Positions 1,754 to 59,543 of a stretch of 64,000 nucleotides of DNA are shown here, piece after piece. The stretch is taken from assembly GCF_003018255.1 (NCBI RefSeq), contig NZ_CP027440.1; one strand, given 5' to 3'. Positions within the stretch are counted from its first letter, which is position 1; each line of letters begins with the position of its first letter. The translations under genes were made by a program, and so were the position numbers. The DNA comes from Escherichia coli. GTDB taxonomy: Bacteria; Pseudomonadota; Gammaproteobacteria; Enterobacterales; Enterobacteriaceae. The notes under the pieces were generated by a model. The model was not told the origin of the DNA and ran no database searches. It saw only the letters and a program-made list of their open reading frames with translations.

Positions 1754-2359
1754 AACACCGAGGTGCTGAATAACCGCACCACGGATGTGATAAACAACCA
1801 TGCTGAGACCATCGGCAACAATCAGGTGATTGCGGTTACCAACAATCAGATACAGACGGTGGGCGTTAACCAGATAGAGACGGTGGGCAGTAACCAGATC
1901 ATTAAAGTGGGCTCTGTTCAGGTGGAAACGATTGGACTTGTTCGTGCGCTGACCGTGGGCGTGGCGTATCAGACGACGGTAGGTGGCATTATGAACACCT
2001 CGGTGGCCCTGATGCAGTCCTCGCAGATCGGTTTGCATAAATCGTTGATGGTCGGGCTGGGTTATGACGTCAAAGTCGGAAATAACGTTACCTTCACCGT
2101 TGGTAAAACGAAAAAGGATGATACCGGACAGACCGCGATTTACTCCGCCGGTGAGCATCTGGAACTCTGCTGTGGTAAGGCAAGGCTGGTGCTGACTAAG
2201 GACGGACAAATTTTTCTCAACGGCACAAAAATTCATTTGCAGGGTAAGGAGCAGGTTAATGGTGACTCACTGTTGATTAACTGGAACTGTGCAGCCTCGA
2301 AATCCCCACCGAAGACCCCTGATGAAAAGCAGGATACGCCGGATATGAGAGAGTACTGA
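1754..2359 (+). pseudogene. vgrG: vgrG 3' remnant (T6SS spike C-terminal repeat region), 5' part removed at the IS right end
   Basis: Translation shows VgrG-type repeats (VGVNQIETVGSNQIIKVGSVQVETIG); the track ORF start at 1721 lies inside the IS, so there is no native start. Confidence 0.65.
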
Positions 2360-2425
2360 TCCCGTACCTGTTCGGTATTCAGTAACAAACAAGCATTAAA
2401 AATAAACAGAAGAAGGAATTGAATC

Positions 2426-5400
2426 ATGAGCGGAAAACCAGCGGCGCGTCAGGGAGATATGACTCAGTATGGCGGTCCCATTGTCCAGGGTTCGGCAGGT
2501 GTAAGAATTGGCGCGCCCACCGGCGTGGCGTGCTCGGTGTGTCCGGGCGGGATGACTTCGGGCAACCCGGTAAATCCGCTGCTGGGGGCGAAGGTGCTGC
2601 CCGGCGAGACGGACCTTGCGCTGCCCGGCCCGCTGCCGTTCATTCTCTCCCGCACCTACAGCAGCTACCGGACGAAGACGCCTGCGCCGGTGGGGATTTT
2701 TGGCCCCGGCTGGAAAGCGCCTTCTGATATCCGCTTACAGATACGCGATGATGCACTGGTACTCAACGACAACGGCGGACGGAGCATTCACTTTGAGCCG
2801 CTGCTGCCGGGTGAGGCGGTGTACAGCCGCAGCGAGTCAATGTGGCTGGTGCGCGGTGGTAAGGCAGCGCAGCCGGACGGCCACACGCTGGGGCGGCTGT
2901 GGGGGGCGCTGCCGCCGGATATCCGGTTAAGCCCGCATCTTTACCTGGCGACCAGCAGCGCACAGGGACCGTGGTGGATACTGGGGTGGTCAGAGCGGGT
3001 GCCGGGTGCTGAGGACGTACTGCCAGCGCCGCTGCCGCCGTACCGGGTGCTGACGGGGCTGGCGGACCGCTTCGGGCGGACGCTGACGTACCGGCGTGAG
3101 GCCGCCGGCGACCTGGCCGGGGAAATCACCGGCGTGACGGACGGTGCCGGGCGTGAGTTCCGTCTGGTGCTGACCACGCAGGCGCAGCGTGCGGAAGAGG
3201 CCCGCACCTCTTCGCTATCTTCTTCTGACCGTCCCCGCCCTCTCTCAGTCTCAGCGTTCCCCGACACACTGCCCGGTACCGAATACGGCCCCGACAGGGG
3301 TATCCGCCTTTCGGCGGTGTGGCTGATGCACGACCCGGCATACCCGGAGAGCCTGCCCGGTGCGCCACTGGTGCGGTACACGTATACGGAAGCCGGTGAA
3401 CTGCTGGCGGTATATGACCGCAGCAATACGCAGGTGCGCGCTTTCACGTATGACGCGCAGCACCCGGGCCGGATGGTGGCGCACCGTTACGCGGGAAGGC
3501 CGGAGATGCGCTACCGCTACGACGATGCGGGGCGGGTGGTGGAGCAGCTGAACCCGGCAGGCCTGAGTTACCGCTACCAGTATGAGCAGGACCGCATCAC
3601 CGTCACCGACAGCCTGAACCGGCGTGAGGTGCTGCATACAGAAGGCGGGGCCGGGCTGAAGCGGGTGGTGAAAAAAGAACTGGCGGACGGCAGCGTCACG
3701 CACAGCGGGTATGACGCGGCAGGAAGGCTCACGGCACAGACGGACGCGGCGGGACGGCGGACAGAGTACGGCCTGAATGTGGTGTCCGGCGATATCACGG
3801 ATATCACCACGCCGGACGGGCGGGAGACGAAATTTTACTATAACGACGGGAACCAGTTAACGGCGGTGGTGTACCCGGACGGGCTGGAGAGCAGCCGGGC
3901 ATATGATGAGCTGGACAGACTGGTATCGGAGACATCGCGCAGCGGGGAGACAGTACGCTACCGCTACGATGACGTGCACAGTGAGTTACCGGCGACGACA
4001 ACGGATGCGACGGGCAGCACCCGGCAGATGACCTGGAGCCGCTACGGGCAGTTGCTGGCCTTCACCGACTGCTCGGGCTACCAGACCCGCTATGAATACG
4101 ACCGCTTCGGCCAGATGACGGCGGTTCACCGCGAGGAAGGTATCAGCCTTTACCGCCACTATGACAACCGTGGCCGGTTAACCTCGGTGAAAGACGCACA
4201 GGGCCGTGAAACGCAGTATGAGTACAACGCCGCAGGCGACCTGACTGCCGTTATCACCCCGGACGGCAACCGGAGCGAGACACAGTACGATGCGTGGGGA
4301 AAGGCGGTCAGCACCACGCAGGGCGGGCTGACGCGCAGTATGGAGTACGATGCTGCCGGACGTGTCATCAGCCTGACCAACGAGAACGGCAGTCACAGCG
4401 ACTTCAGCTACGATGCGCTGGACCGCCTGGTACAGCAGGGCGGCTTTGACGGGCGGACGCAACGTTATCATTATGACCTGACCGGAAAACTCACGCAGAG
4501 TGAAGATGAGGGGCTTGTCATCCTCTGGTACTACGATGAATCGGACCGTATCACTCACCGCACGGTGAACGGCGAACCGGCAGAGCAGTGGCAGTATGAT
4601 GGCCACGGCTGGCTGAGAGAAATCAGCCACCTGAGCGAAGGCCACCGTGTTGCCGTCCACTATGGCTACGACGATAAGGGCCGTCTGACCGGGGAGCGCC
4701 AGACGGTGGAGAACCCGGAGACGGGGGAACTGCTGTGGCAGCATGAGACGAAACAGGCATACAACGAACAGGGGCTGGCAAACCGCGTCACGCCGGACAG
4801 CCTGCCGCCGGTGGAGTGGCTGGCCTATGGCAGCGGTTATCTGGCGGGCATGAAGCTGGGCGGGACGCCGCTGCTGGAGTACATGCGGGACAGACTGCAC
4901 CGGGAGACGGTGCGCAGCTTCGGCAGCATGGCAGGCAATACAGCCGCATATGAACTGACCAGCACTTACACCCCCGCAGGCCAGTTACAGAGCCGGCACC
5001 TGAACAGCCTGGTGTTTGATTGTGACTATAACTGGAATGACAACGGCGACCTGATGCGCATCAGCGGCCCGCGACAGACGCGGGAATACGGCTACAGCGC
5101 CACGGGCAGGCTGGAGAGCGTGCGCACCCTCGCACCGGACCTGGACATCCGCATCCCGTATGCCACCGACCCGGCGGGCAACCGGCTGCCGGACCCGGAG
5201 CTGCACCCGGACAGTACACTCACAGTGTGGCCGGATAACCGAATCACCGAAGACGCGCACTACCTGTACCGTTACGATGAATACGGCAGGCTGGCGGAGA
5301 AGACGGACCGCATCCCGGCGGGTGTGATACGGACGGACGACGAGCGGACCCACCACTACCACTACGACAGCCAGCACCGCCTGGTGTTCTATACGCGGAT

Positions 5401-6586
5401 ACAGCATGGCGAGCCACTGGTCGAGAGCCGCTACCTTTACGACCCGCTGGGCCGCCGGACGGGTAAACGGGTATGGCGGCGGGAGCGTGACCTGACGGGG
5501 TGGATGTCGCTGTCGCGTAAACCGGAGGTGACGTGGTACGGCTGGGACGGCGACCACCTGACGACGGTGCAGACCGACACCACGCGTATCCAGACGGTAT
5601 ATCAGCCGGGGAGCTTCGCGCCGCTCATCCGCATCGAAACAGACAACGGTGAGCGGGAGAAAGCGCAGCGCCGCAGCCTGGCGGAGAAGCTGCAGCAGGA
5701 AGGGAGCGAGGACGGGCACGGCGTGGTATTTCCGGCTGAACTGGTGCGGCTGCTGGACAGACTGGAGGAAGAAATCCGGGCAGACCGCGTGAGCAGTGAA
5801 AGCCGGGCGTGGCTTGCGCAGTGCGGGCTGACGGTGGAGCAACTGGAAAAACAGGTGGAGCCGGAATACACACCGGCGCGAAAAGTTCATCTTTACCACT
5901 GCGACCACCGGGGACTGCCGCTGGCGCTTATCAGCGAAGACGGCAATACGGTGTGGAGCGCGGAGTATGATGAATGGGGAAACCTGCTTAATGAGGAGAA
6001 CCCGCATCATGTGTATCAGTCATACCGTCTGCCGGGGCAGCAGCATGATGAGGAGTCGGGGCTGTACTACAACCGGAACCGGTACTACGATCCGTTGCAG
6101 GGGCGGTATATCATCCAGGACCCGATAGGGCTGGCGGGGGGAATAAACCCGTACAGTTATGTTATGAACAATCCTGTGCAATGGATTGATCCATTGGGAT
6201 TAGCTCATACTTCAGGAAAATGGAAGGACTGTGGTAAAGGTTGTCGAATCCGAATAGATGGCGATGCTGTTGGTGACGGAAGACATTTGCATTGGGAGTG
6301 TAAAAATGGGAGTGGTGTAATGGGGGAATTTGGAGGTATGTCCCATGGTGAGGATTACTCATCAGCACCAAATAGCATTAAGAAATGTGCAAAAAAATAT
6401 GGTTTCGAGCCAGAACCAAGTAAAGATCTGTCATGCAAAACCTCCGGGCTATCAACTACTGATGCGGCTCTTGCAACTGGTGCTACAATTGGCGCAGGGT
6501 ATGTTATATATAGAGTGATTCGATTTATACCTTCACTTGCACCACCTCTTTGGTGGTCAATACCTGCAAACGTTGTTACTCCATGA
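2426..6586 (+). CDS. rhsE: Rhs family polymorphic toxin, full length (1386 aa): N-terminal domain, YD-repeat shell, PxxxxDPxGL motifs, divergent C-terminal tip
   Basis: N-terminus [31 protein letters not shown] and many YD repeats; DPIGLAGG at ~6120-6140 and WIDPLGL at ~6184-6204; GC-rich core then AT-rich ~125-aa tip; SD GAAGAAGGA upstream. Symbol is by position only. Confidence 0.85.
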
Positions 6587-6957
6587 TTAAAACGGATAAT
6601 GGAGATTATATAATGAGCGATTTTGACATTGTGAGTTCAATTGACTGGCATGATGGGGTTTTGTTAGAAGTAAAAACGACATTCAAAGAATCTCATTTTA
6701 ACATGACGTTATTTATTGACATTTATAAAAATGAGAACATTAGGGAAAAAATGATAGTTGAATTTTCTGATGTAGATGATTTAGTGTTCGCTATGGATTC
6801 TGCTGAGTTAATCGATAATCACAAGTCAGGTAATATAAGTAATGGGTATGTAAAGAAATTAAAAAACAAAAGGATATATAAATTTTTTCTTTATTTTTCT
6901 GATGGCTTATTAAGCATGACATTTAAAAATTTACAATTAATAAAACCATTAGAGTAA
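6583..6957 (+). CDS. putative cognate Rhs immunity protein (RhsI-like, ~124 aa)
   Basis: ATG overlaps the rhs TGA stop (ATGA) around 6583-6586; AT-rich like the toxin tip; no hydrophobic segment. Start could instead be 6550 or 6613. Confidence 0.6.
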
Positions 6958-6995
6958 CCAAATAAAAGGACTGGAGGAATCAGGGGAAGATCATT

Positions 6996-7021
6996 AAAGT
7001 TGTGATTATCATCACAACTTT
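6996..7021. repeat. perfect 11-bp inverted repeat AAAGTTGTGAT-TATC-ATCACAACTTT
   Basis: Read directly; lies ~40 bp after the immunity stop; terminator-like or protein-binding palindrome. Confidence 0.5.
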
Positions 7022-7124
7022 AATCTTGGTTTCACCTTGTTGATTTGATTAAAATTTAATCGCCAAATAATTAAATATATTAGAAAAGGACGTCTGGTGA
7101 ACATTCAAAGTCTTCTTGAGCATA

Positions 7125-8415
7125 CAGGGAAAGATCATCAGAAGTACACTTTTTGTACTAAATAATTCGCATTTTATGTTTAAAAATTGAGATATTCCTC
7201 ATTACCTAAAGCTGTTTTTTATTGCTTATACATGATCAAATACTCCTTACATAATTAAGGAGAACAAAATGGAACTTAAAAAATTGATGGGACATATTTC
7301 TATTATCCCCGATTACAGACAAACCTGGAAAGTGGAACATAAATTGTCAGATATTCTACTGTTGATTATTAGTGCCGTTATTTCTGGTGCAGAAGGCTGG
7401 GAAGATATAGAGGATTTTGGGGAAACACATCTCGATTTTTTAAAGCAATATGGTGATTTTAAAAATGGTATTCCTGTTCACGATACCATTGCCAGAGTTG
7501 TATCCTGTATCAGTCCTGCAAAATTTCACGAGTGCTTTATTAACTGGATGCGTGACTGCCATTCTTCAGATGATAAAGACGTCATTGCAATTGATGGAAA
7601 AACGCTCCGGCATTCTTATGACAAGAGTCGTCGCAGGGGAGCGATTCATGTCATTAGTGCATTCTCAACAATGCACAGTCTGGTCATCGGACAGATCAGG
7701 ACGGATGAGAAATCTAATGAGATTACAGCTATCCCTGAACTTCTTAACATGCTGGACATTAAAGGAAAAATTATCACAACTGATGCGATGGGTTGCCAGA
7801 AAGATATTGCAGAGAAGATACAAAAACAGGGAGGTGATTATTTATTCTCTGTAAAAGGAAACCCGGGGCGGCTGAATAAAGCTTTTGAGGAAAAATTTCC
7901 ACTGAAAGAATTAAATAATCCAGAGCATGACAGTTACGCAATTAGTGAAAAGAGTCACGGCAGAGAAGAAATCCGTCTTCACATTGTTTGCGATGTCCCT
8001 GATGAACTTATTGATTTCACGTTTGAATGGAAAGGTCTGAAGAAATTATGCGTGGCAGTCTCCTTTCGGTCAATAATAGCAGAACAAAAGAAAGAGCCAG
8101 AAATGACGGTCAGATATTATATCAGTTCTGCTGATTTAACCGCAGAGATGTTCGCCACAGCAATCCGAAACCACTGGCACGTGGAGAATAAGCTGCACTG
8201 GCGTCTGGACGTGGTAATGAATGAAGACGACTGCAAAATAAGAAGAGGAAACGCCGCAGAATTATTTTCAGGGATACGGCACATCGCTATTAATATTTTA
8301 ACGAATGATAAGGTATTCAAGGCAGGGTTAAGACGTAAGATGCGAAAAGCAGCCATGGACAAAAACTATCTGGCGTCAGTCCTTGCGGGGAGCGGGCTTT
8401 CGTAATCTTTCCCTG
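7125..8415 (+). mobile_element. ISAs1-family (H-repeat type) insertion sequence, copy 2, 1291 bp, same orientation as copy 1
   Basis: Same terminal repeats (CAGGGAAAGATCA ... CGTAATCTTTCCCTG) and same length as copy 1; internal sequence near-identical with scattered substitutions. Confidence 0.8.
7269..8405 (+). CDS. ISAs1-family DDE transposase (H-repeat-associated protein), 378 aa, copy 2
   Basis: Same length and register as 607..1743 with several substitutions (e.g. [15 protein letters not shown] vs [15 protein letters not shown]). Confidence 0.85.
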
Positions 8416-48303: not shown

Positions 48304-50676
48304 TTAAAATTTCATGCTGACATCAAGCCAGAAAGTACGGCCACTGGCGTAGGTCGCCACGCCGGTATTCGTTGTATCAACCGCGGTTTTGCTATCCAGT
48401 ACATTGAGAATATCGGCACTGATCGTCAGGTTTTGTTGTTTCAGAAATTGTGGCGTCCAGGACAAGCGGGTGTCCCAGGTCAGGCTGCTATCCAGTTTCT
48501 CGTCAACATACTGCTTGTAATCTGAATATTCGTTGATGTATTGCGCATTCGTCTTACCCAGGATAATGCGAGCTTTACGCGCTTCTTGCCAGGTCAGCGT
48601 ATTCGCCCACACCAACCCGCTCGGTTGATGCGTGAAATCCATGTTTAAGGAGATCTTTAATGGATTATTAAAATCCGCCACTGGAACGCTATCATAAGAG
48701 ACCAGATTACCGTTATAAACCACCCGGTTATCATCGGTATTGCTTTCCTCATAACCATTGTTTAACGACAAGTTGCCCTTGCTCTTGATATAGCTAAAGA
48801 CAATTTGCGGGTTAACATCTACCTGGCTGATATGCAGGGGTTCGGCCAGTTCAAAACTGAGGTTGAACGAATGCGTTTTGGTTTTGCCGTCGTTGTTATA
48901 TTCAGTAATGGTGGTTTTAGTCGCGCTGTCGGTACGACTGCTTTTGCTGATTTGATCATGCGCTTCACGGTAAACATAGTTTGCGCGCGCAATAACGTTC
49001 TTACCGATTTTCTGCTGCAACCCCATTGCCAGTTCATCGTTATAAGGCGTTTTCAAATCCTGATAACGCGTCAGGGTTTTATTGCCTGATACCGATTCCG
49101 TCCAGCTATTGCGGATATCACGTAATCCCATATCAAGAATATTCCCGCCATAGTAACGGTTATAACCTGCGGTAATCATTGAGGTTTGATCAGCAAAAAT
49201 ATCCCATTCCGTCATAAAGCGCGGGGAGATATTGTGGTTTGACAGATAGTTGTCATAGTCATACCGCACACCGGGCATTAACGACACATTCCGCCAGCTA
49301 ATGCGATCCGCCATATACAGCGTGTAGTTGTCAATTCCCAGACTGCCTTTACCTTTATGGTAAATGGTATGGTTAGTTTTCTTTCCTGCAGCATTAATCA
49401 CATAGGATTCAGACTGGTTATGGCGTTCAGTCCATGCATCGGAATAGATGTATTCCGCGCCGAAGTAGGGTTGATGCGAAACATCACCCACGGCGAATTT
49501 TTGCCAGTCCAGGCGTGTTTTGAAGGTGTAATTATCTACAGCCTGGGAAATGTGTCCTAATCCACCACGGGTGCAACGACCTGAAATATCACCATATGTA
49601 CATGAAAGTTCGGTGTACCAGATGTCATGATCGTGACGGGTATAATCACTAATATGATCCCAACCAACGGTAGTACGTAGTTTGGCCCATGCGAGCTGCG
49701 TATCCATATCCCATGCCAGACCGTAGGATTTATTACCCATTTCGCGATCAGACTGCGGGAAGGTGCTGGTATTATAATCACGACTGGAGCCGGTATATTT
49801 TAAGGTAAAATCGTGGGTAAAGCGGTCGCTGGCAAACCAAGTAAATTTGCTCAATGCGGTATCGATAACGTTTTTATACTGTGCCCGACCGGCGACAATG
49901 CCGTCATTCGAAACATAATCCGCGCGGGTGATATCAGACTGGCGGCGCGATAAACCGGCGGTAACGCCAAAGTTATCAGCGAGTTCCTGATTAAACGACA
50001 AGGTATAAAAGTTCTTTTTAAAATCTGGAGAGTAATAAGTACTTCCTGAAGAACCTTGATTAAATGCGCTCTTGTTATTCTCATCGATATGCGATGTTAA
50101 CCAGTCCGAACGCGTAGTGCGATAACCCAGTTTCACGCTGCTATCATCAGCGTTGAAGCGTTTGATCTTTGCATCAATTACCCCGCCATTGAAGCGACCG
50201 AATTCAACCGGCACAAAACTGTCATAAAGCGTCACATTGTCCAGTAAGCTGACATCAAGATAATAGCCCTGTGACATCCCGCTAATATTGGTTGCACTAC
50301 TGGCATCGGACTCATTCGCTGGGTTCAGGTTATTAGTTGCACTAATACCATCAATCAAATAGGCATTCTGGTAGGGCGACGCACCGTGAATAGAGATTTT
50401 CTCCGGGCGAATATCTCCCTGGTTCAATGAGGTACTTTGCGTTGAATCCATGCGCACCGCAGGGTTGGTTCTCAGCAGATCGCTGATATTGCCATTCCCG
50501 GTCGGTAAACGCTCGATGCTTTCACTGGTGTAATGCGTGTTGCCGTTTACGGGTACAGGGACAGGAGCATAGACCGTCATCTCTTCAAAAACATGCATGT
50601 ACATGTTTTTGTCATCGACGGCCTGCGCTACATCAGCGCCACATAAAATGACGCCAGGAATAAGAACTCGCTTCAT
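48304..50676 (-). CDS. yddB: TonB-dependent outer membrane receptor-like protein (790 aa)
   Basis: C-terminal phenylalanine and beta-barrel composition. Confidence 0.8.
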   Translation of the reverse strand: MKRVLIPGVILCGADVAQAVDDKNMYMHVFEEMTVYAPVPVPVNGNTHYTSESIERLPTGNGNISDLLRTNPAVRMDSTQSTSLNQGDIRPEKISIHGASPYQNAYLIDGISATNNLNPANESDASSATNISGMSQGYYLDVSLLDNVTLYDSFVPVEFGRFNGGVIDAKIKRFNADDSSVKLGYRTTRSDWLTSHIDENNKSAFNQGSSGSTYYSPDFKKNFYTLSFNQELADNFGVTAGLSRRQSDITRADYVSNDGIVAGRAQYKNVIDTALSKFTWFASDRFTHDFTLKYTGSSRDYNTSTFPQSDREMGNKSYGLAWDMDTQLAWAKLRTTVGWDHISDYTRHDHDIWYTELSCTYGDISGRCTRGGLGHISQAVDNYTFKTRLDWQKFAVGDVSHQPYFGAEYIYSDAWTERHNQSESYVINAAGKKTNHTIYHKGKGSLGIDNYTLYMADRISWRNVSLMPGVRYDYDNYLSNHNISPRFMTEWDIFADQTSMITAGYNRYYGGNILDMGLRDIRNSWTESVSGNKTLTRYQDLKTPYNDELAMGLQQKIGKNVIARANYVYREAHDQISKSSRTDSATKTTITEYNNDGKTKTHSFNLSFELAEPLHISQVDVNPQIVFSYIKSKGNLSLNNGYEESNTDDNRVVYNGNLVSYDSVPVADFNNPLKISLNMDFTHQPSGLVWANTLTWQEARKARIILGKTNAQYINEYSDYKQYVDEKLDSSLTWDTRLSWTPQFLKQQNLTISADILNVLDSKTAVDTTNTGVATYASGRTFWLDVSMKF

Positions 50677-50713
50677 TTATTTATATCTCCGTACAGCAGG
50701 GCTTTTATTGTTT

Positions 50714-52399
50714 TTATATAACCGCGCTAATGTCACAAATATCATCAGCCAGGTTCCAGACACCGGGTTGATGTGTAACCATAATGACGCCGCTTGTGGG
50801 TAGTTTTTCACGCACTAAACGCAGTAAGCGGATAGCCTCTTGTTCCTCAAGATGAGAGGTAGTTTCGTCAAGAAATATCCATTTCGGACGTCGTAAAATT
50901 AATCGTGCCAGGGCGATACGTTGTTTTTCGCCGCTGGAAAGAATATCGCCCCAGCGATCGTGGTCATGAATACGCGCAGCCAATTTCCCCAGACCAACCT
51001 GATGCAGTACTTCGCTCAACGATTTATCGTCTACGGACAGGGGAAGTGCTTTACAAATTATCTCTTTCAGTAAGCCGGTTTTGATTAACGGTGTTTGTGA
51101 CACATACCAACTGTCAGCAGGAGAAGAAATATCACCTTTAAACCACGGCCAGCAGTGGGATAATGTTTTAAGCAGTGTGGTTTTTCCCGCACCAGAGTAA
51201 CCTTTCAGTAATAGCCATTTGCCTGGCGAAACATGAAAGTTCAGGTTCTCTAATATGATCTTATTATCAGGAGTACGAATACTCGCGTCAGCCACTTGTA
51301 CCGCATGTTGGCAATTTTTAGGCTTATTCGTAGGGCGCTGTTCGGTGAGTTGATGGAACTCATACAAACGATCGATAACCGCAGCCAGTTCAGCAAGTTC
51401 GTCATATTTATAAATAAACCAGCTTAAATTGTTCGATACCAGCATAAATGCCTGGCGCGATTTCATCAGTCCGCCCAGATTGATCTGTCCGCTAATAAAC
51501 TGCGGCAATAACAGAAAGTAGGGAAGAACGCTAAGCGAGCGCGAATAAATATTCTGCCAGTAATCAAGCCACCGCTGACGATTCATTAAACGATGCCAGT
51601 TCTCTTTAATGGTATGAAAATTGTCGCTTAACTCCTGGCGTTGTAGAGACTCAGCATTGCTTAGCGCAATCAGTTCTGCCTGCTTATTATGCTGCACAAG
51701 ATTAGTTCGAAATGTCGCTTCGCTACGTTGTTTTTCCACATTAAGCGGACGAATACGTTTACCAACCTTATGGGTAAATAAAGTTCCACCGATCACAATG
51801 AGCACAACGGTATAGACCATATACCCCTGGATATTCCATTCTGTTCCACCAACAGTGAATGAGAGCGTACCCGCGCTTTGCCAAAGAATAACGGTAAAGG
51901 TGATCAACATGCTAAGTGACTGGATGAAGCCAAATGAAAGGCTGAGCGTTTTACTGATCAGTAAGAGAATGTCCTCAGCGATACGTTGGTCAGGGTTATC
52001 TGTATTTTTATGCTCACCGTAGATCTGCGTGAAGTAGTAGTTTTTATCTGCAAACCAGCGATTAAGGTAGTAATCTGTTAACCATTCGCGCCAGCGAATA
52101 GTCAGTAGTTTAATTAGCCATGTTTTGTTTACGGATATTAATACAAAGATCCCCAGCAGGGCAGGGAACCAAAGGACAAGCTGCCAAAGCTTATCGGTTT
52201 CTTTCTGGCTTAGCGCATTGAAAAAATCATTATTCCAGTCGTTTAACCAGACCTGAATTTTAACCACGCCAAGGATCATGGCGAGGATAATAATGATTAA
52301 CAACACTGAAGTTTTATTATTCTTACGCAGCCAAAATGGCTTCAGCAGACAGAGATACTTTGCTATCAACATACAAAACGTAATGGGAATGGTTATCAT
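50714..52399 (-). CDS. yddA: ABC transporter, fused permease/ATPase (561 aa)
   Basis: Walker A GYSGAGKTT in the C-terminal half. Confidence 0.8.
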   Translation of the reverse strand: MITIPITFCMLIAKYLCLLKPFWLRKNNKTSVLLIIIILAMILGVVKIQVWLNDWNNDFFNALSQKETDKLWQLVLWFPALLGIFVLISVNKTWLIKLLTIRWREWLTDYYLNRWFADKNYYFTQIYGEHKNTDNPDQRIAEDILLLISKTLSLSFGFIQSLSMLITFTVILWQSAGTLSFTVGGTEWNIQGYMVYTVVLIVIGGTLFTHKVGKRIRPLNVEKQRSEATFRTNLVQHNKQAELIALSNAESLQRQELSDNFHTIKENWHRLMNRQRWLDYWQNIYSRSLSVLPYFLLLPQFISGQINLGGLMKSRQAFMLVSNNLSWFIYKYDELAELAAVIDRLYEFHQLTEQRPTNKPKNCQHAVQVADASIRTPDNKIILENLNFHVSPGKWLLLKGYSGAGKTTLLKTLSHCWPWFKGDISSPADSWYVSQTPLIKTGLLKEIICKALPLSVDDKSLSEVLHQVGLGKLAARIHDHDRWGDILSSGEKQRIALARLILRRPKWIFLDETTSHLEEQEAIRLLRLVREKLPTSGVIMVTHQPGVWNLADDICDISAVI

Positions 52400-52689
52400 T
52401 AGCGAAAATTGATTGTGCCATCCAATGATTATCTATGGCAATGATTTACTGATAAAATTTATTTAAGTATCATTTAACAATATGAAATATAAAGAAATAT
52501 TTCATTTTCAGTGGTTATGGTTATGCTATTGATAATCAAGGGTATTGCTAATGCCCTGACGCATGCCGCGTAAGCCAGAATTTTCGCAAGGGAAGATGAT
52601 GATGACGAAACACCCAACAGGAATTTATGTCGGGTGCTTTGTTAAGGTCATAAGACGGAGGCTAAGACTGGAGCAAAGAAGGAGCGTTA

Positions 52690-53847
52690 TTAATTATTCT
52701 CCATTTGTTTTGCAACATCCATAATGTGGTAAAGCGGTACTCTGTTCTTGGCTAACTCCACCATGGCGTTCATATAAGGTACCATGGTTGAAAAAAGGAT
52801 TTTATAACCTTCGCAAAAATAGGAAATAGTCTCATTGTTTACTTTAGTAATACGATGCTTAGGGCAACCACCATTGCAGATAGGTTTATATACACATTGC
52901 TGACATTTCGCTGAAATCCGTTTTTTTTGCGCTGTCAGTTGTACACTGTTCATCGTTTTGAGTTCCGATTTATTAATGTTTCCAATTTTGTACTGTGGAT
53001 AGACAAAATGGTCGCATTCGTAAATGTCTCCATTACTTTCAACAACCAGATTATCCTTGCAGGACTCCTGGAAAATACAACTGGTATGCCCATTCCCCAA
53101 AAAACGGCTGACAAAGCTTTCAAACTGACGGATGAAAATTTCACCCACATCGTTTTTAACCCATTGCATAAAAATGGTTGACATAAACTTGCCATAAGCC
53201 GTGGGAGGCACAGAAAAATCAATGATACGGAATGTATTCTCAGTATGACCACTGAAATCAATATTCGGCGTCCCGGTTTCGAGCAATTCGATAAATTGCA
53301 TATGTTTACTGCCGATAGATTTTAAAAAATGATAAACCTCAAGAGGGTAATGGACATTAATGTTATTAATAACGGTTAACGTATTAAACTCTATTTGATA
53401 TGATTTCAGACGCTCGATGGCTGCTATCACTTTTGCAAAAGTACCGTTACCTGAATTACTGCGTCTGTAACGGTCATGTAGCTCTTGGGGGCCATCGATC
53501 GAGATACCAACCAGAAACTCATGTTCTTTGAGAAAGGCACACCATTCATTATTCAATAAAATGCCATTCGTTTGTAATGCATTAAAAATACGTTTTTGGC
53601 CTGCATAGCGTTGTTGATAGTGAATAACTTTACGGAAAAAATCCAGGCCAGCCAGAGTGGGTTCACCGCCTTGCCAGGTAAAATAGACCTGATTGCCAGA
53701 CGCTGCGATATATTGTTTGATGAACTCTTTCAGAGTGCTGTCATCCATCCATTTTTCATGAGTAAACTGCGACTCTTTTTCAAGGTAAAAACAGTAATCA
53801 CATTTGAGATTACATTGAAAACTGGAGGGCTTGGCTGTAACGTGCAT
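52690..53847 (-). CDS. ydeM: anaerobic sulfatase-maturating enzyme homolog, radical SAM (385 aa)
   Basis: CxxxCxxC motif (CNLKCDYC) near the N-terminus. Confidence 0.8.
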
Positions 53848-53898
53848 CGCTATCTCGCTCAATAAGGCGGCGGAAAAATCCGCCGCATGAAGGTTTAG

Positions 53899-55581
53899 TT
53901 ATTTCGCTTCGCTTAGTGCTTTCTTGATATTGTTAAACTTCTCCTGATTTACCTCGCTAAGCGGTGGCTGGCTGTTGTCGATAAACTCTCTTACCACGCC
54001 TTGCATCTCTTTAACGACCTGCGGATTGGCGGCGGCAAGGTTATCTTTTTGCTGTAGATCCGTCAGTTTGTAGAGACCTAACTGATTATTTTCTACTGTA
54101 TAGACAAGCGAATAATCGTTATTTCTCACCGTATAAGAGAATTGGCTTAAGTCCTCGGTGTTGGGGTTATGCGGGTAATCGTCTGACTGATGGCGGACAA
54201 ATTTGTGGTAATTATCCCAGAATGGAATATTTTCCTCATCAAACCAGTGAGAATAAGAGGTTATCCAGGTCAGATTTTTATGTGGCTCGCCTTGTTTCTT
54301 ATCTTGCAACCAGGGCAGCAAGGAAACGCCATCCAGCTTAAGGTCTTTTGGAATGCTGATATCGGCTGCATCAAGAGCTGTCGGGTAGAAATCCATTGCG
54401 GAAATCAGCTTGTCATAATTACCGGGTTGAAGTTTTCCTTTCCACCACATAAACATTGGGGTGTGAGTACCGCCAGGATAGGTCTGACTCTTATAGCCTT
54501 TTTGCGCCCCGTTCAGCGGCAGAGGACCATCGATAACCGCACCATTATCGGAGGTAAAGAGAATAATAGTATTGTCATACTGTCCGTTTTTCTTCAGTTG
54601 TTCGAGAATGCGTTTTACACCCTGATCAACAGAATAAACGGAAGCGTAGTAGTTATCTGCTGTTTGACTACCGGTATTAAATTGCTTCTGATATTGCTCC
54701 GGTGCAGGATTATCATTTGGCAGATGCGGAGCATTATAAGCCAGGTAAAGCATAAAAGGCTGGTCAAGTGTTTTGGCACGATCAACAACGCCAATTGCCT
54801 CATCGGTTAACTGATCGCTGATATAACCTTTTGCGGGGACGCGTTCACGGTTTTTGAACAGTGAAGGGGAGTTGTAATATGCCGTTCCTGCAGCGTGGAA
54901 TCCCATAAAGTAATCAAAGCCACGGTTTTGCGGTTGCCATTCTTCCGCAGAATAGGTGGTGAAGTTGTCATGATAGTCACGCGTTTGTTTATCTTCCGGT
55001 ACCGGCACATTACTGATTTTTGACAAGTGCCATTTACCTACTGCTGCAGTGTAATAACCATGATTCTGGAATAATTCAGGCAGGAAAGTTTCTGTTAGCG
55101 GAATACCATCCTGAGCATCGGTATTGGAATAGACACCAAAGCGGGCGGGCGCTCGACCGGTCATTATTGCGGCGCGGGAGGGGCCGGAAACACCGTGCGC
55201 CACATAGCCGTTAGTAAAACGTACGCCTTCATCCATTAATGACAGGAGCGTCGGCGTTGATTTTTGCGCAGCTTCAATGGCTTTATCTATCCCTATTTTG
55301 TAGGTATCGACAACTTCACGATTTTCCATTGTTTTTGGGTCAAAAGATCCCTTATCAAAAGGAAGTTGTCCATAACCAAGATCATCCATAGTCAGTACGA
55401 TAATATTTGGCTTTCCCTTGGTACTGTATTCAGTCGGCGTAAAGTCTGAGAAAGCAACGTTTGTTTTGGTTGCTTTCAGCTTTACATCATCTGCCGCATG
55501 AGCAGCAAATGCAGCCATACCAGATGCCAGTATCAAAGATATCGAGGTACTTACGACACTTTTCTTTAATGCAGACTTCAT
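53899..55581 (-). CDS. ydeN: putative sulfatase (560 aa) with signal peptide
   Basis: Alkaline-phosphatase-superfamily sulfatase next to its maturase homolog. Confidence 0.8.
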   Translation of the reverse strand: MKSALKKSVVSTSISLILASGMAAFAAHAADDVKLKATKTNVAFSDFTPTEYSTKGKPNIIVLTMDDLGYGQLPFDKGSFDPKTMENREVVDTYKIGIDKAIEAAQKSTPTLLSLMDEGVRFTNGYVAHGVSGPSRAAIMTGRAPARFGVYSNTDAQDGIPLTETFLPELFQNHGYYTAAVGKWHLSKISNVPVPEDKQTRDYHDNFTTYSAEEWQPQNRGFDYFMGFHAAGTAYYNSPSLFKNRERVPAKGYISDQLTDEAIGVVDRAKTLDQPFMLYLAYNAPHLPNDNPAPEQYQKQFNTGSQTADNYYASVYSVDQGVKRILEQLKKNGQYDNTIILFTSDNGAVIDGPLPLNGAQKGYKSQTYPGGTHTPMFMWWKGKLQPGNYDKLISAMDFYPTALDAADISIPKDLKLDGVSLLPWLQDKKQGEPHKNLTWITSYSHWFDEENIPFWDNYHKFVRHQSDDYPHNPNTEDLSQFSYTVRNNDYSLVYTVENNQLGLYKLTDLQQKDNLAAANPQVVKEMQGVVREFIDNSQPPLSEVNQEKFNNIKKALSEAK

Positions 55582-55982
55582 AAATGTTCCTCTTCTTATT
55601 GTACTTAATTCCAAAGTAATTTTACGAAGAGAAATAAGTGGATGTAAGTGAAGTTAGTCACATAAAGAGATAGCAGATTAAGCTAAAAAAAGAGAAATAA
55701 CAGTCCATAAACTGTTGACATTACTTTCTATTCTACTAAGTAATTTCTCGCCGATAAACAACTAATCTATTGATATTTAATAAATTATTGTATTTTACTG
55801 ACAAAATTCCGAATTGAGATCATAAATAATCATGCAACAGGTTATGCAAATGCATAAATATGTGATGAATGTCACTTATTTATTTCAATAATATATCGCC
55901 TAAAAACAACGCGGGGCAGGGAATGGCTGCCCCATTTTAATTTCTACGTAACGTGCGTGGTTGACTACTCGTTAGCAAATAA

Positions 55983-56744
55983 TCAAATAGCTAAAGCACT
56001 CATCGTGTTATCCGTGTTCATACCCGTGTGCCTTTGACAACGGTACTCCTTAGAAACTCTCTTCGGACTGTTGCCGAAATGTTTGCGGAACGCATAAATA
56101 AAATAAGATGTACTCGCATAACCACATTGTTCGGCAATTTTATTGACTGAACCTTCTACGCGTATCAAATTTTTTGCGTGCTGCATTCTGGCATCTAAAA
56201 GAATCTGTGAGAATGTCGTTTGCTCTTGCTTTAGTTTTTTCTTCAACAGGCTTTCACTAATGTACAGGCAGTCACAAATATCTTTCAGCTTCCATGGGTG
56301 CGCCAGCTTCATGTTGACAATATTTCTCACTTTCCCGGAAACGGATAGCACACCGTTAGTTAATAGTGTAATGAAACCTTTGCATGTGGCAAAAATAGAC
56401 AGGCAAGAAAAAAGCAAAAGTTCTGAAAAGTTATGATGATTGCGTTCTTCCGAGTTGAGATAAGCAATCATTTCATTAAGCAATCCAGTCGGTACATTTG
56501 AAGCACGTAAAAACTTCGCAGGGACAGGCATCGTCACTGTCTGGATGTTAGTGCATTGTAGATATTTTTTAATGGTGTTTTCATTAAATCCGATTTCTTT
56601 GAAATGCCGCTCATAAGGTTCAAAATGCGTACGAACAGCGTTATCTACCATCAGGATCTCGCCGTCAGAGAAGGCGTAATCTTTATCTGAAATGTTAGCG
56701 TTGAAGGCATGATGAATAAATATAACAGAACAAACGAGCGACAT
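55983..56744 (-). CDS. ydeO: AraC-family acid-resistance regulator YdeO (253 aa)
   Basis: C-terminal AraC-type HTH. Confidence 0.85.
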   Translation of the reverse strand: MSLVCSVIFIHHAFNANISDKDYAFSDGEILMVDNAVRTHFEPYERHFKEIGFNENTIKKYLQCTNIQTVTMPVPAKFLRASNVPTGLLNEMIAYLNSEERNHHNFSELLLFSCLSIFATCKGFITLLTNGVLSVSGKVRNIVNMKLAHPWKLKDICDCLYISESLLKKKLKQEQTTFSQILLDARMQHAKNLIRVEGSVNKIAEQCGYASTSYFIYAFRKHFGNSPKRVSKEYRCQRHTGMNTDNTMSALAI

Positions 56745-56818
56745 TTTATCTCCTTAAAATAATAAAGTTTTTATCGATAATTTTTTAACATTTCATATTT
56801 ATAATTTGCTGTTTATTT

Positions 56819-57016
56819 TCAGTCTTGCAAACTATTGATAATGAAATGTGTAAGATCTCTTGCAATGCGACCCATTTCTGAAATACCCAGCTGATCAATT
56901 GCCGAAAAAATGGCTATCAACGTAAGTGTCAGTAATAAGACAACCACAATTACAGACATGATTTCTTTATAGTTGTCTCTTTGCGTGATTTTGTTTTTCA
57001 CTGTGGTCGCATGCAT
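56819..57016 (-). CDS. safA: small membrane protein SafA, PhoQ activator (65 aa)
   Basis: Single TM segment; immediately upstream of ydeO. Confidence 0.8.
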   Translation of the reverse strand: MHATTVKNKITQRDNYKEIMSVIVVVLLLTLTLIAIFSAIDQLGISEMGRIARDLTHFIINSLQD

Positions 57017-57127
57017 TTCAAATATGTTAATTTAGCGGATAACGTTAAAAATCGTTAATCAGTATGCTTAATATAACAGGCTGGAGAAAAGAGGAAATAG
57101 GACTGGCACTTCAGTACTGAGCGGAGT

Positions 57128-57146
57128 TTCTTACAGCTGTAGGCAG
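57128..57146. promoter_or_regulatory. EvgA-box-like inverted repeat TTCTTACA-GC-TGTAGGCA upstream of safA
   Basis: Close to the EvgA consensus TTCYTACA-N2-TGTARGAA; nearly the same 18-mer recurs upstream of ydeP. Confidence 0.5.
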
Positions 57147-57263
57147 AAGTTTATATCTTATAGGATGTGGTTTAATTTAATCCATGTGAGCAAATTGCGC
57201 GATAATAGTCAATGAGGAATTCTTCTGCTGTGCGGATGACAGCAGAAGAAATGAGAAGAGGCA

Positions 57264-59543
57264 TTAATTTGATGGTTCTAATTCAACCGGAATACTTTTA
57301 TAGCCTGGAATGCCACTTAATGGATCGTGGTTATCAAGTGTTAGCATGTGATTCGATTCTGGAAAATAGGTCACCAGTGAGCGGTCAGCCATAGGGTAAA
57401 TGACCACTTTTAATCTATCCATGCGGCGTGAGCTTCGCTTACCGTCTGGCGTAAGCGCAATAAGATTAACTCTTTCGCCGTTTTTTACACGGCAAATTTT
57501 AGCTTGTTTAGCACTCATAAAGACCACATCTCGTTGACCGAATACCCCTCGATAGCGATCATCCATACCATAAATCGTCGTGTTGTACTGATCGTGACTG
57601 CGTACTGTCGCCATGACTAGCTTACTGTTAAACGCTGAAGAGGGATCTTCTAACAGCCCTTTACTGGTAATGAAATTAGCCTTACCTGACGACGTCCTCC
57701 AGCGCCTTTCAGCAGCTGCGTTTATCAGGTGAAAACCTCCAGGATGTCGGATGCGCTGGTTATAGTCGGCGAACTCTGGCAGTACAGCTTCAATGTCATT
57801 GCGAATGCGATCATAATCTTCCACCAGATACTCCCAGGCTACCACGCTCTGGGGGAGTGCTGCCTGCGCGATTCCCGCAACCACTGCACACTCTGATTTC
57901 AGCATTACACCGGCGGGTTTTAACACGCCACGCGAGGCATGAATCATCGACATTGAATCCTCAACGGTTACCGCCTGCGTACCGCTTTTTTGCATGTCAA
58001 TCTCGCTGCGTCCCAGAACCGGCAGAATATAGCTATGCCGTGCGGTCAGCAGATGAGAGCGGTTAAGCTTAGTGGCAACGTGTACCGCCAGATCTAATTG
58101 CGTTAACGGTACAGCGCTCGCTTCCCGATCTGGCATTGCCAGTGCAAAGTTGCCCCCCATGCAGATCAATGCGCGAGCCTGCCCCGTACATATTGCTTGC
58201 ATGCTGGCAATTGCAGCATGTCCAGGTGCATGAGGTGGGGTGAAACCATAGCGCTCACCCAGGCGAGCCAGAAACTCTGCAGACGGTTTCTCGGTGATAC
58301 CGACGGTTCGGTCGCCCTGTACATTAGAGTGACCTCGTAGTGGGCAGATACCCGCACCAGGCTTACCAATGTTACCTTTCATCAACAGCAGATTGACCAG
58401 TTGCTGTACGTTCTGGGTACCATGTTCGTGCTGAGTGATCCCCATTCCGTAACAGATAATGGTTCGTTCGGCAGCGGCATATGCATCAGCAAGTTCGGCG
58501 ATTTGTGTCTGACTTAGTCCAGAAATACGTTCGATATCTTTCCACTCGGAATTGAGCACGTCACGGCGTAGCTCGTCAAAGCCGATGGTATGCGTTTGAA
58601 TAAATTCGTCATCCAGCAATGAGGGCCGACCTGCGGCGCTTGCAGCATCATCGCGCTCAATTAACAGGCGCATCATCCCCTTGAGCAACGCCATATCACC
58701 ACCAATGCGCACGTTGTAGTAGGCACTGGCCAACTGAGTCTCAGAGTTCGTCAGCATTTCAAACGGGTTTTGCGGTGCGGTAAATCGCTCCAGGCCACGT
58801 TCCTGTAGAGGATTGATGGCGATCATTTTCGCTCCCCGTTTCACTAAAGCGCGCAACGAAGTCAACATGCGAGGGTGGTTTGTACCAGGGTTATGCCCAA
58901 TGCAAATGACTAAATCGCATTTCTCAAAGTCTTCCAGCAACACGGTCCCTTTACCTACACCGATACTCGCTGCCAAACCCACACTGGTCGGTTCATGGCA
59001 CATGTTGGAGCAGTCGGGGAAGTTATTGCTCCCGTATTCACGGGCAAAAAGCTGATAAAGAAAGGCAGCTTCATTGGAAGTGCGGCCCGAAGTATAGAAT
59101 TCAACCTGATTGGGATCACTATAGCTTTGAAGGCGTTCGCCAATTTCGTCGAAAGCTTGTTGCCAGCTTAATGGCTTGTAACAGTCGCTGACGTCATCAT
59201 ATTTCAAAGGCTGAGTGAGACGTCCCGCAGCCTCAAGCTCGTGATCTCCCCAGGTAAGTAATGATTGAACCGTATTCTCAGCAAAGAAAGAGGCATTTAC
59301 CTGCTTATCCGTGACTTCCCAGGCGATTGCTTTTGCGCCGTTTTCACAAATGTCGAATGACGCACTGTGCTTAGGATCTGGCCATGCACATCCCGGACAG
59401 TCAAAGCCCTCTGGCTTATTCATATCAAACATGGCAATAACATCCTGGCGTATATCCATCTGCTTACGTACTGCATTTGCTACGGATTTAACAGCACCCC
59501 AACCACCGGCAGCTCCCTGGTAGGATTCAATTTTTTTCTTCAT
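57264..59543 (-). CDS. ydeP: molybdopterin oxidoreductase-like acid-resistance protein YdeP (759 aa)
   Basis: Formate-dehydrogenase-like fold, full length. Confidence 0.85.

Follow-up and report, generated by a model that had tools for sequence, protein, structure and literature searches.

The ydeN–ydeM gene pair of Escherichia coli as a putative serine-type sulfatase and anaerobic maturase module

Described sulfatase–maturase systems and the ydeN–ydeM locus

In Klebsiella pneumoniae the Sec-exported periplasmic serine-type S1 sulfatase AtsA and the cytoplasmic anaerobic sulfatase-maturating enzyme (anSME) AtsB are encoded by adjacent co-oriented genes in the order atsBA, with the maturase first. 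Serine-type sulfatases need an anSME and cannot be served by the oxygen-dependent formylglycine-generating enzyme. The ydeN–ydeM pair of E. coli resembles AtsA/AtsB in that a serine-type sulfatase gene and an anSME gene adjoin in the same orientation, a likeness drawn from the features of the genes and proteins. It differs in the reversed gene order, with the sulfatase first, and in its regulators, which are CRP, AraC and GadX for ydeN versus sulfate starvation for the Klebsiella ats genes.

The natural substrate of anSMEcpe from Clostridium perfringens is a Cys-type sulfatase. This enzyme (PDB 4K36-4K39) is ~34% identical to YdeM and shares with it the three radical-SAM cysteines, the eight auxiliary cysteines and the Asp after the third auxiliary Cys, whereas a C-terminal extension of ~25 residues in YdeM and its proteobacterial orthologues is not found in anSMEcpe. 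The same E. coli genome also encodes a second pair, AslA and AslB, in which AslB shares 41% identity with YdeM. AslA is of the serine type like YdeN (SSPTR aligned with Ser132) but only 27% identical to it, and aslB and aslA are convergent, unlike the co-oriented ydeN and ydeM, and therefore do not form a single operon.

The window (the whole stretch of 64,000 nucleotides that was analysed) is E. coli chromosome with ~98.5-98.8% nucleotide identity to K-12 MG1655 over ydeN and ydeM. The two genes (Table 1) were located exactly where the preliminary description had placed an adjacent, co-oriented and intact pair, and its identification of a secreted sulfatase and an anaerobic maturase homolog is borne out by Pfam PF00884, TIGR03942 and the predicted signal peptide. 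The ORF scan recovered ydeN within a minus-strand frame of 571 aa (53899..55614), where translation from the first ATG (55581) yields a product of 560 aa, and ydeM within a frame of 390 aa (52690..53862), in which the ATG at 53847 gives 385 aa. For ydeM a TTG start at 53862 was dropped in favour of this ATG; the orthologues all start with MH(V/I/F)T(A/I)KP. The genes are separated by 51 nt, with ydeM downstream. The RefSeq annotations of JNE23-011 (99.9-100% identical) and of MG1655 give the same names and boundaries, and relative to MG1655 there are 21 nucleotide and 3 amino-acid differences in ydeN and 18 and 6, respectively, in ydeM. A chance pair of open reading frames is excluded by the matches of YdeN to the Pfam Sulfatase profile (238.4 bits, cut-off 25, E 1.5e-70, whole profile 1-301 covered) and of YdeM to the NCBIfam equivalog TIGR03942 (502.1 bits, cut-off 349.45, positions 1-362 of 363). 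The pair has also been called a known K-12 gene pair, which is correct for the genes, documented and annotated in MG1655, and not for the window, which is from a strain other than K-12. The families of both proteins and several of the regulators had been published before.

Table 1. Features of the ydeN–ydeM locus (positions in the window)
Feature	Position	Strand	Basis
ydeN, 560 aa, family S1 formylglycine-dependent sulfatase precursor	53899..55581	minus	ORF scan, RefSeq annotation, Pfam PF00884, solved structures
ydeM, 385 aa, radical-SAM/SPASM anaerobic sulfatase-maturating enzyme	52690..53847	minus	ORF scan, annotation, TIGR03942, 4K36
Formylglycine target motif, serine type, S132-G-P-S-R136-A-A-I-M-T-G-R143 (SGPSRAAIMTGR)	55153..55188	minus	sequence, alignment
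Predicted Sec-type signal peptide, codons 1-29 (MKSALKKSVVSTSISLILASGMAAFAAHA, then ADD)	55495..55581	minus	read from sequence
Radical-SAM cluster motif C12-N-L-K-C16-D-Y-C19 (CX3CX2C)	53791..53814	minus	aligns to C15/C19/C22 of anSMEcpe
SPASM region: C257, C263, C278, C315, C318, C324, C328, C345 and D279	52813..53079	minus	alignment; Pfam SPASM E 2.4e-6
Predicted sigma-70 promoter of ydeN: -35 CTTACA, 18-nt spacer, -10 TAAAAT	55619..55648	minus	consensus scan, 9/12
CRP-like site TGTGACTAACTTCACT, 9/10	55647..55662	minus	consensus match
Distal second CRP-like site AGTGACATTCATCACA, 9/10	55861..55876	minus	consensus match
Intrinsic terminator after ydeO, delimiting the ydeNM transcription unit upstream	55912..55934	minus	terminator scan
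Intergenic hairpin GCGGCGGA-TTTT-TCCGCCGC, then CTTATTG	53867..53886	minus	RNA fold

Catalytic features of YdeN and YdeM

The formylglycine target motif and the auxiliary Fe-S cysteines, on which the preliminary description had made the two assignments depend, are both present, the former in its serine form. The Ser132 motif fits sulfatase signature 1, (C/S)-x-P-x-R followed by xxx-(L/M)-T-G-(R/K), and residues 175-185 (GYYTAAVGKWH) fit signature 2, G-Y-x-T-x-x-x-G-K-W-H; both are PROSITE patterns. SGPSR was invariant in 110/110 full-length-like YdeN homologues inspected, all of the serine type, and the peptide …AHGVSGPSRAAIMTGR… derived from YdeN is a possible target of the maturase. YdeN being of the serine type, an anSME and anaerobic co-expression would therefore be required. 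The metal and catalytic motifs DDLGYG, APHLP, SDNG and KGxK align with those of solved S1_19 sulfatases such as 9hh2.

Among solved structures, the closest to YdeN are the S1_19 sulfatases 9hh2, 6bia and 6b0j (E 1e-52 to 1e-50), which precede S1_7 (1e-43) by about nine orders of magnitude in a comparison that covers solved structures only. The likeness to 9hh2, 6bia and the iota-carrageenan sulfatase 6b0j extends over residues 109-436 with every active-site motif aligned. YdeN differs from them in ~27 additional residues (82-108) following the DDLGYG motif and in a C-terminal domain (437-560) that aligns poorly, and its Ser type contrasts with the Cys type of wild-type 9hh2/9hh3 (CGPSR in 9hh3). 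The N-terminus of YdeN, as read from the sequence, has a basic n-region, a hydrophobic core and an AHA-A cleavage-type end without a twin-arginine. The protein has been listed as periplasmic (PMC10746267), and a YdeN peptide was detected in the O157 proteome from anaerobic rumen fluid (PMC3936929).

YdeM matches the anSMEcpe structure 4K36 over residues 4-359 (E 8e-63). The motif CNLKCDYC noted earlier for ydeM lies near the N-terminus, and C12/C16/C19, the eight auxiliary-cluster cysteines (8/8 aligned to anSMEcpe), D279 and GGEP do not vary when YdeM is aligned with three orthologues and anSMEcpe. The eight aligned cysteines presumably ligate the two auxiliary [4Fe-4S] clusters of the 4K36 structure, and D279 corresponds to the proposed catalytic base of anSMEcpe. 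Benjdia and colleagues reportedly found in 2007 that a Cys-type sulfatase was still matured in E. coli after deletion of ydeM and aslB, and no phenotype is therefore tied to ydeM.

We consider it about 85% probable that the two genes form a module in which YdeM activates the serine-type YdeN by formylglycine formation and the exported YdeN hydrolyses a sulfate ester. In this scheme YdeN would be synthesised as a Sec-signal precursor, and cytoplasmic YdeM would oxidise Ser132 to C-alpha-formylglycine ahead of export. YdeM would cleave S-adenosylmethionine reductively and take a hydrogen from the serine beta-carbon, an electron leaving the enzyme via the two auxiliary clusters. In the periplasm, the hydrated aldehyde of the modified YdeN and a bound divalent metal would then hydrolyse the sulfate ester. 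The modification of YdeN by YdeM, its chemistry and the periplasmic action are all likely from the family assignments and aligned residues.

Promoter, regulation and putative physiological role

The ydeN promoter is predicted from its match to the consensus alone, and the count of such sites in the region was not above chance. Upstream, the transcription unit is bounded by the terminator after ydeO, which has an 8-bp stem with 6 GC pairs followed by CGTTGTTTTT. With its centre ~41-42 nt ahead of the predicted start, the proximal CRP-like site would have a class-II-like placement, and it agrees with the inclusion of ydeN among the CRP targets found by genomic SELEX (PMC3105977). AraC binding upstream of ydeN requires arabinose (PMC3738151) and ydeMN expression is up in an araC deletion (PMC10878103, citing Stringer 2014). 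The window-wide count of the AraC half-site TAGC-N7-TCCATA (≤2 mismatches) was not above that in shuffles, with no convincing instance, and no convincing tandem half-sites 21 bp apart were found in the ydeN upstream region; the published binding can therefore not be placed on the sequence. Repression of ydeN by GadX has been reported (PMC4918353). This regulation agrees with the earlier proposal of a candidate conditionally expressed system, and the promoter would, from the literature on CRP, AraC with arabinose and GadX, answer carbon-catabolite and acid signals. The label "cryptic", also given to the pair, holds for activity and substrate only: the searched literature contained no demonstrated sulfatase activity, substrate or formylglycine of YdeN. 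It fails for expression, as ydeN is transcribed and regulated and ordinary cultures yield readily measurable ydeN mRNA (PMC10746267, PMC2731931).

The substrate of YdeN is probably a sulfated sugar used for carbon and not an aryl sulfate used for sulfur. A working module that instead scavenges sulfur, with YdeN as an arylsulfatase like AtsA of Klebsiella or Pseudomonas, appears unlikely. Classical bacterial ats systems are induced by sulfate starvation, and YdeN matches the NCBIfam models for arylsulfatase and choline-sulfatase in part, with scores far under their cut-offs. In the same direction, FD&C Red 40, a sulfonated azo dye, induced ydeN and no other gene (PMC10653809). Against sulfur scavenging stand the known inputs, which in the sources cited above are CRP, AraC with arabinose and GadX, and the 32-fold drop of ydeN at pH 4.4 alongside malE, xylF, lamB and treC (PMC10746267), while no report of control of ydeN by CysB or Cbl was found in the searched literature. 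The nearest solved relatives argue likewise, being carbohydrate sulfatases (S1_19, S1_7, S1_16) and GALNS, with arylsulfatases not among the closest. One paper suggests that ydeNM could be linked to the foraging of gut glycans (PMC10878103). The basis for a carbon-foraging role is solely the identity of the promoter regulators.

Conservation of the pair and the intergenic hairpin

Orthologues with 72-81% identity occur in Yersinia pestis, Aeromonas veronii and Anaerobiospirillum, where the gene after the sulfatase is likewise of the radical-SAM family, encoding 387-391 aa, and the flanks of the module are wholly different. This bears on the proposal that YdeM modifies another protein or peptide and that YdeN is activated by AslB, by a third E. 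coli system or never, which we regard as very improbable. Related SPASM enzymes do modify other targets, and YdeM matches peptide-maturase models, but weakly (e.g., 218 bits for DynA, whose cut-off is 450), whereas the sulfatase-maturase model TIGR03942 is the only equivalog that it passes. E. coli has a second maturase in AslB, and a third formylglycine-forming system is suspected (PMC8379841). Some E. coli also carry a second ydeN-like sulfatase without an adjoining maturase gene, next to which a tblastn search found no maturase remnant. Against these points, the sulfatase-then-maturase order is held in four genera despite changing surroundings. The orthologous sulfatases are, moreover, all of the serine type, which needs an anSME.

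Both genes are under purifying selection, with dN/dS between the window and K-12 of 0.045 for ydeN and 0.12 for ydeM. That ydeNM is the decaying remnant of a cassette gained by horizontal transfer, without function, silent or useless in E. coli and retained by chance, is highly improbable and the least credible reading, as the low G+C (38.6% in ydeM and 44.6% in ydeN versus 48.9% in the window), which suggests foreign origin, the literature silent on YdeN activity, the IS5 or IS2 insertions in or near ydeM in 2/40 sampled genomes and the weak ydeM ribosome-binding site are set against these dN/dS values, the retention of all catalytic and cluster residues, the transcription of ydeN under several regulators (PMC10746267, PMC4918353, PMC3738151), the detected peptide (PMC3936929) and the presence of at least 80% of the pair, at a median of one copy, in ~98% (5,322/5,426) of the complete E. 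coli genomes.

For the module of serine-type sulfatase and maturase, the sole small addition to the known facts is that the intergenic hairpin may set the sulfatase-to-maturase ratio. This GC-rich structure (-17 to -18.7 kcal/mol, z = -2.4 by RNA fold) is unchanged in K-12, and in Yersinia, Aeromonas and Anaerobiospirillum the same intergenic gap holds a strong hairpin of different sequence. We do not term it a terminator, because its T-tract is weak and it was passed over by the terminator scan. A permissive Rfam scan of 52300..56100 gave two sub-threshold matches only (isrK at 20 bits versus 50, and a plastid element), which were taken as chance, and the hairpin thus belongs to no known RNA family. 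It may reduce expression of the maturase relative to the sulfatase.

A more speculative and rather doubtful extension is that sulfatase, hairpin and maturase make up a self-contained, horizontally mobile cassette for CRP/AraC-controlled carbon foraging, in which the hairpin partly terminates transcription or forms an RNA-processing barrier and so leaves the maturase sub-stoichiometric or conditional. If true, the level of formylglycine-bearing YdeN would be fixed after transcription initiation, which could explain the ready transcription of ydeN without laboratory sulfatase activity in E. coli, and control by CRP and AraC would point to carbon foraging on one particular sulfated sugar from host or diet. 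As a discovery ydeNM matters little; its residual value is that of an annotation puzzle in the best-studied bacterium, concerning a near-universal module. The practical points are that its nearest structural relatives are sugar sulfatases, that its promoter looks like CRP class II and that the conserved hairpin may restrict maturase expression. The Shine-Dalgarno region ahead of the ydeM ATG (GAGCGAGATAGCG) is weak and, because the hairpin lies in front of it, ydeM may be poorly expressed.

Gene limits and protein families

An ORF scan of 50000..58500 recovered two ORFs opening with TTG, of 571 aa (ydeN) and 390 aa (ydeM), and the first ATG of ydeN (55581) and the ATG of ydeM at 53847 give proteins of 560 aa (N-terminus MKSALKK) and 385 aa (N-terminus MHVTAKP), reproducing the limits 52690-55581 of the preliminary description. 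RefSeq labels the genes of the region yddA, ydeM ('anaerobic sulfatase maturase'), ydeN ('sulfatase-like hydrolase/transferase') and ydeO, within the gene order pqqL-yddB-yddA-(yneP)-ydeM-ydeN-ydeO-safA-ydeP. The pair had been described as known from K-12; both genes are indeed present with equal lengths in K-12 MG1655, but the window itself is not K-12, its best match being strain JNE23-011 (99.9-100%), and relative to MG1655 ydeN has 21 nucleotide and 3 residue differences and ydeM 18 and 6, respectively. The gene identities and their interpretation were correct, and the finding is not new: PMC10878103 cites Schirmer and Kolter 1998 and subsequent studies for it. The small ORF yneP (40 aa, intact) lies antisense to ydeM, and overlaps its final 35 nt; the K-12 annotation names it protein YneP, and many other genomes list it as 'hypothetical protein'.

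YdeN matched the Pfam Sulfatase model across the whole profile (E 1.5e-70), with a serine-type formylglycine target motif (S132-G-P-S-R-A-A-I-M-T-G-R143), the second sulfatase signature GYYTAAVGKWH, and DD, PH, DN and KGxK positions that line up with solved sulfatases. Its N-terminus, MKSALKKSVVSTSISLILASGMAAFAAHA followed by ADD, reads by eye as a Sec signal peptide without twin-arginine. The nearest solved structures were the S1_19 carbohydrate sulfatases 9hh2, 6bia and 6b0j (E 1e-52 to 1e-50), followed by S1_7, S1_16 and GALNS-type structures, well above classical arylsulfatases in score; these best structural matches suggest a tentative placement of YdeN in SulfAtlas subfamily S1_19. A segment of about 27 residues (82-108) is extra in YdeN, being absent from those structures and from AslA, the sulfatase of the other E. 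coli sulfatase/maturase pair.

YdeM scored 502 bits against the NCBIfam equivalog TIGR03942 for anaerobic sulfatase maturases (cut-off 349), remained under the cut-off for every peptide-maturase model, and aligned to the anaerobic sulfatase-maturating enzyme (anSME) of Clostridium perfringens, anSMEcpe (4K36; E 8e-63). When YdeM was aligned with anSMEcpe and three of its orthologues, C12/C16/C19, the GGEP motif, D279 and the auxiliary cysteines C257, C263, C278, C315, C318, C324, C328 and C345 were invariant. Both the sulfatase motif and the eight auxiliary Fe-S cysteines, on which the preliminary description depended, are thus present. With every sequence-level defining feature found, YdeN is assigned to the S1 sulfatases and YdeM to the anSME family.

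Conservation and spread of the gene pair

The region was found by megablast in 5,393 of 5,426 complete E. coli genomes and the full-length pair in 5,322, normally as one copy; dN/dS between the window and K-12 was 0.045 for ydeN and 0.12 for ydeM. A protein search retrieved YdeN orthologues (70-84% identity), all with SGPSR, from Leminorella, Citrobacter, some Salmonella, Dryocola, Yersinia, Proteus, Shewanella, Aeromonas, Iodobacter and Anaerobiospirillum. A co-oriented radical-SAM gene (387-391 aa, 53-66% identity to YdeM) comes after the sulfatase gene in Y. pestis, A. veronii and a metagenome contig of Anaerobiospirillum. The flanking genes are entirely different and include IS transposases (Aeromonas) and a Y1 transposase (Yersinia). 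The G+C content is 38.6% for ydeM and 44.6% for ydeN vs 48.9% for the window. Selection, prevalence, distribution, conserved pairing and low G+C together describe ydeN-ydeM as a cassette of two genes that has spread horizontally without its parts being separated. Short of experiment, this is the strongest evidence at hand that YdeM would serve YdeN.

IS insertions (IS5, IS2) in or beside ydeM occurred in 2 of 40 genomes of a spread sample. These two genomes, NZ_CP062895.1 and NZ_CM148329.1, are occasional natural knock-outs, with IS5 inside the ydeNM region in one and IS2 splitting ydeM in the other.

Upstream region and intergenic hairpin

Coordinates of the features discussed (window positions unless a comparison locus, with its own coordinates, is named)
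Feature	Position	Strand	Remark
ydeN ORF	53899..55614	-	from TTG
ydeM ORF	52690..53862	-	from TTG
yneP	52602..52724	+	
Terminator after ydeO	55934..55912	-	terminator scan, clear
Predicted ydeN promoter	55648..55619	-	-35 CTTACA / -10 TAAAAT; consensus match only
CRP-like site	55662..55647	-	TGTGACTAACTTCACT, 9/10; adjoins predicted -35
Second CRP-like site	55876..55861	-	9/10
PhoB-site copy in ydeN	55008..55025	-	TGTCAAAAATCAGTAATG
ydeN-ydeM hairpin	53886..53867	-	GCGGCGGA-TTTT-TCCGCCGC
A+T-rich stretch	55500..57500		ydeN upstream region, ydeO, safA
Porin gene, A. veronii (L004)	2156..3235		
Porin gene, E. coli island (L006)	4770..5906		
Second ydeN-like sulfatase gene (L006)	6001..7698		GCA_043957195.1
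aslB/aslA (L008)	3959..7008		convergent

Since the terminator after ydeO is clear, about 330 bp of upstream sequence belong to ydeN alone, and the predicted promoter is the sole promoter-like match on the correct strand. The centre of the adjoining CRP-like site is about 41-42 nt from the expected ydeN start, which would be a class-II-like position. The A+T-rich stretch is the most A+T-rich near the pair (G+C 36-39%; flanking ydeP about 52%), a composition that would fit the acid-resistance island known to be silenced by H-NS.

The pair had been called cryptic. For transcription this does not hold, the ydeN promoter being active and regulated according to the literature: ydeN is among the genomic-SELEX CRP targets (PMC3105977), and its upstream region is occupied by AraC only with arabinose (PMC3738151). 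PMC10878103 (citing Stringer et al. 2014) gives increased ydeMN expression in an araC deletion and increased ydeM in mouse-gut-adapted strains. The ydeN transcript is lowered by GadX binding (PMC4918353), pH 4.4 reduces both its mRNA level and its ribosome occupancy about 32-fold, alongside malE, xylF, lamB and treC (PMC10746267), and it is down-regulated in Psp and Cpx overexpression sets (PMC2731931). The sulfonated dye FD&C Red 40 induced ydeN and no other gene, yet ydeN is dispensable for dye reduction (PMC10653809), and a YdeN peptide was detected in the O157 proteome in anaerobic rumen fluid (PMC3936929). We infer from this regulator set a carbon-source logic rather than sulfur starvation. 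For activity the term stands, as no report of a YdeN substrate, formylglycine formation or phenotype was found in the literature searched; E. coli maturation systems are incompletely understood (PMC8379841). The intragenic PhoB-site sequence occurs once in the window (0 expected by chance), as an exact copy of a site reported to be transcriptionally inert in K-12 (PMC10294691).

The two genes are separated by a gap of 51 nt that holds a GC-rich hairpin (-17 to -18.7 kcal/mol by RNA fold, z = -2.4), unchanged in K-12 and without an Rfam family match. The T-tract that comes after the hairpin is weak, as is the ribosome-binding region of ydeM. Strong hairpins of unrelated sequence occupy the same gap in Yersinia, Aeromonas and Anaerobiospirillum, followed in the last by TTTTTCTTG. 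Structure kept despite sequence change suggests a function, most likely partial termination or 3'-end stabilisation that would hold the maturase below the sulfatase level, a lead drawn from four sequences with a single z-score as the sole statistic.

Related sulfatase systems

The system closest by described mechanism is Klebsiella AtsA/AtsB, a serine-type periplasmic sulfatase and an anSME, whose gene order and regulation are unlike those of ydeN-ydeM. The parallel case in the same genome is AslA/AslB: AslB and YdeM share 41% identity, AslA is of the serine type (SSPTR) like YdeN but only 27% identical to it, and aslB/aslA are convergent in K-12 whereas ydeN-ydeM are co-oriented. As AslA also has serine at the formylglycine position, both E. 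coli sulfatases with a neighbouring maturase (AslA, YdeN) are classed by motif as serine type.

A second serine-type sulfatase resembling YdeN (565 aa, 77% identical, motif SGPSRAAILTARA) is encoded by some E. coli (loci L006 and L007), and one cluster of these sulfatases comprises 303 member sequences. Its gene lies in an island directly 3' of a porin gene, near S6 autotransporter and TonB-dependent receptor genes. Downstream of it, tblastn detected neither a gene resembling ydeM nor a remnant of one, so this sulfatase would rely on a maturase encoded elsewhere. A porin gene is also located upstream of the sulfatase in A. veronii, so porin and sulfatase may be associated in certain forms of the cassette.
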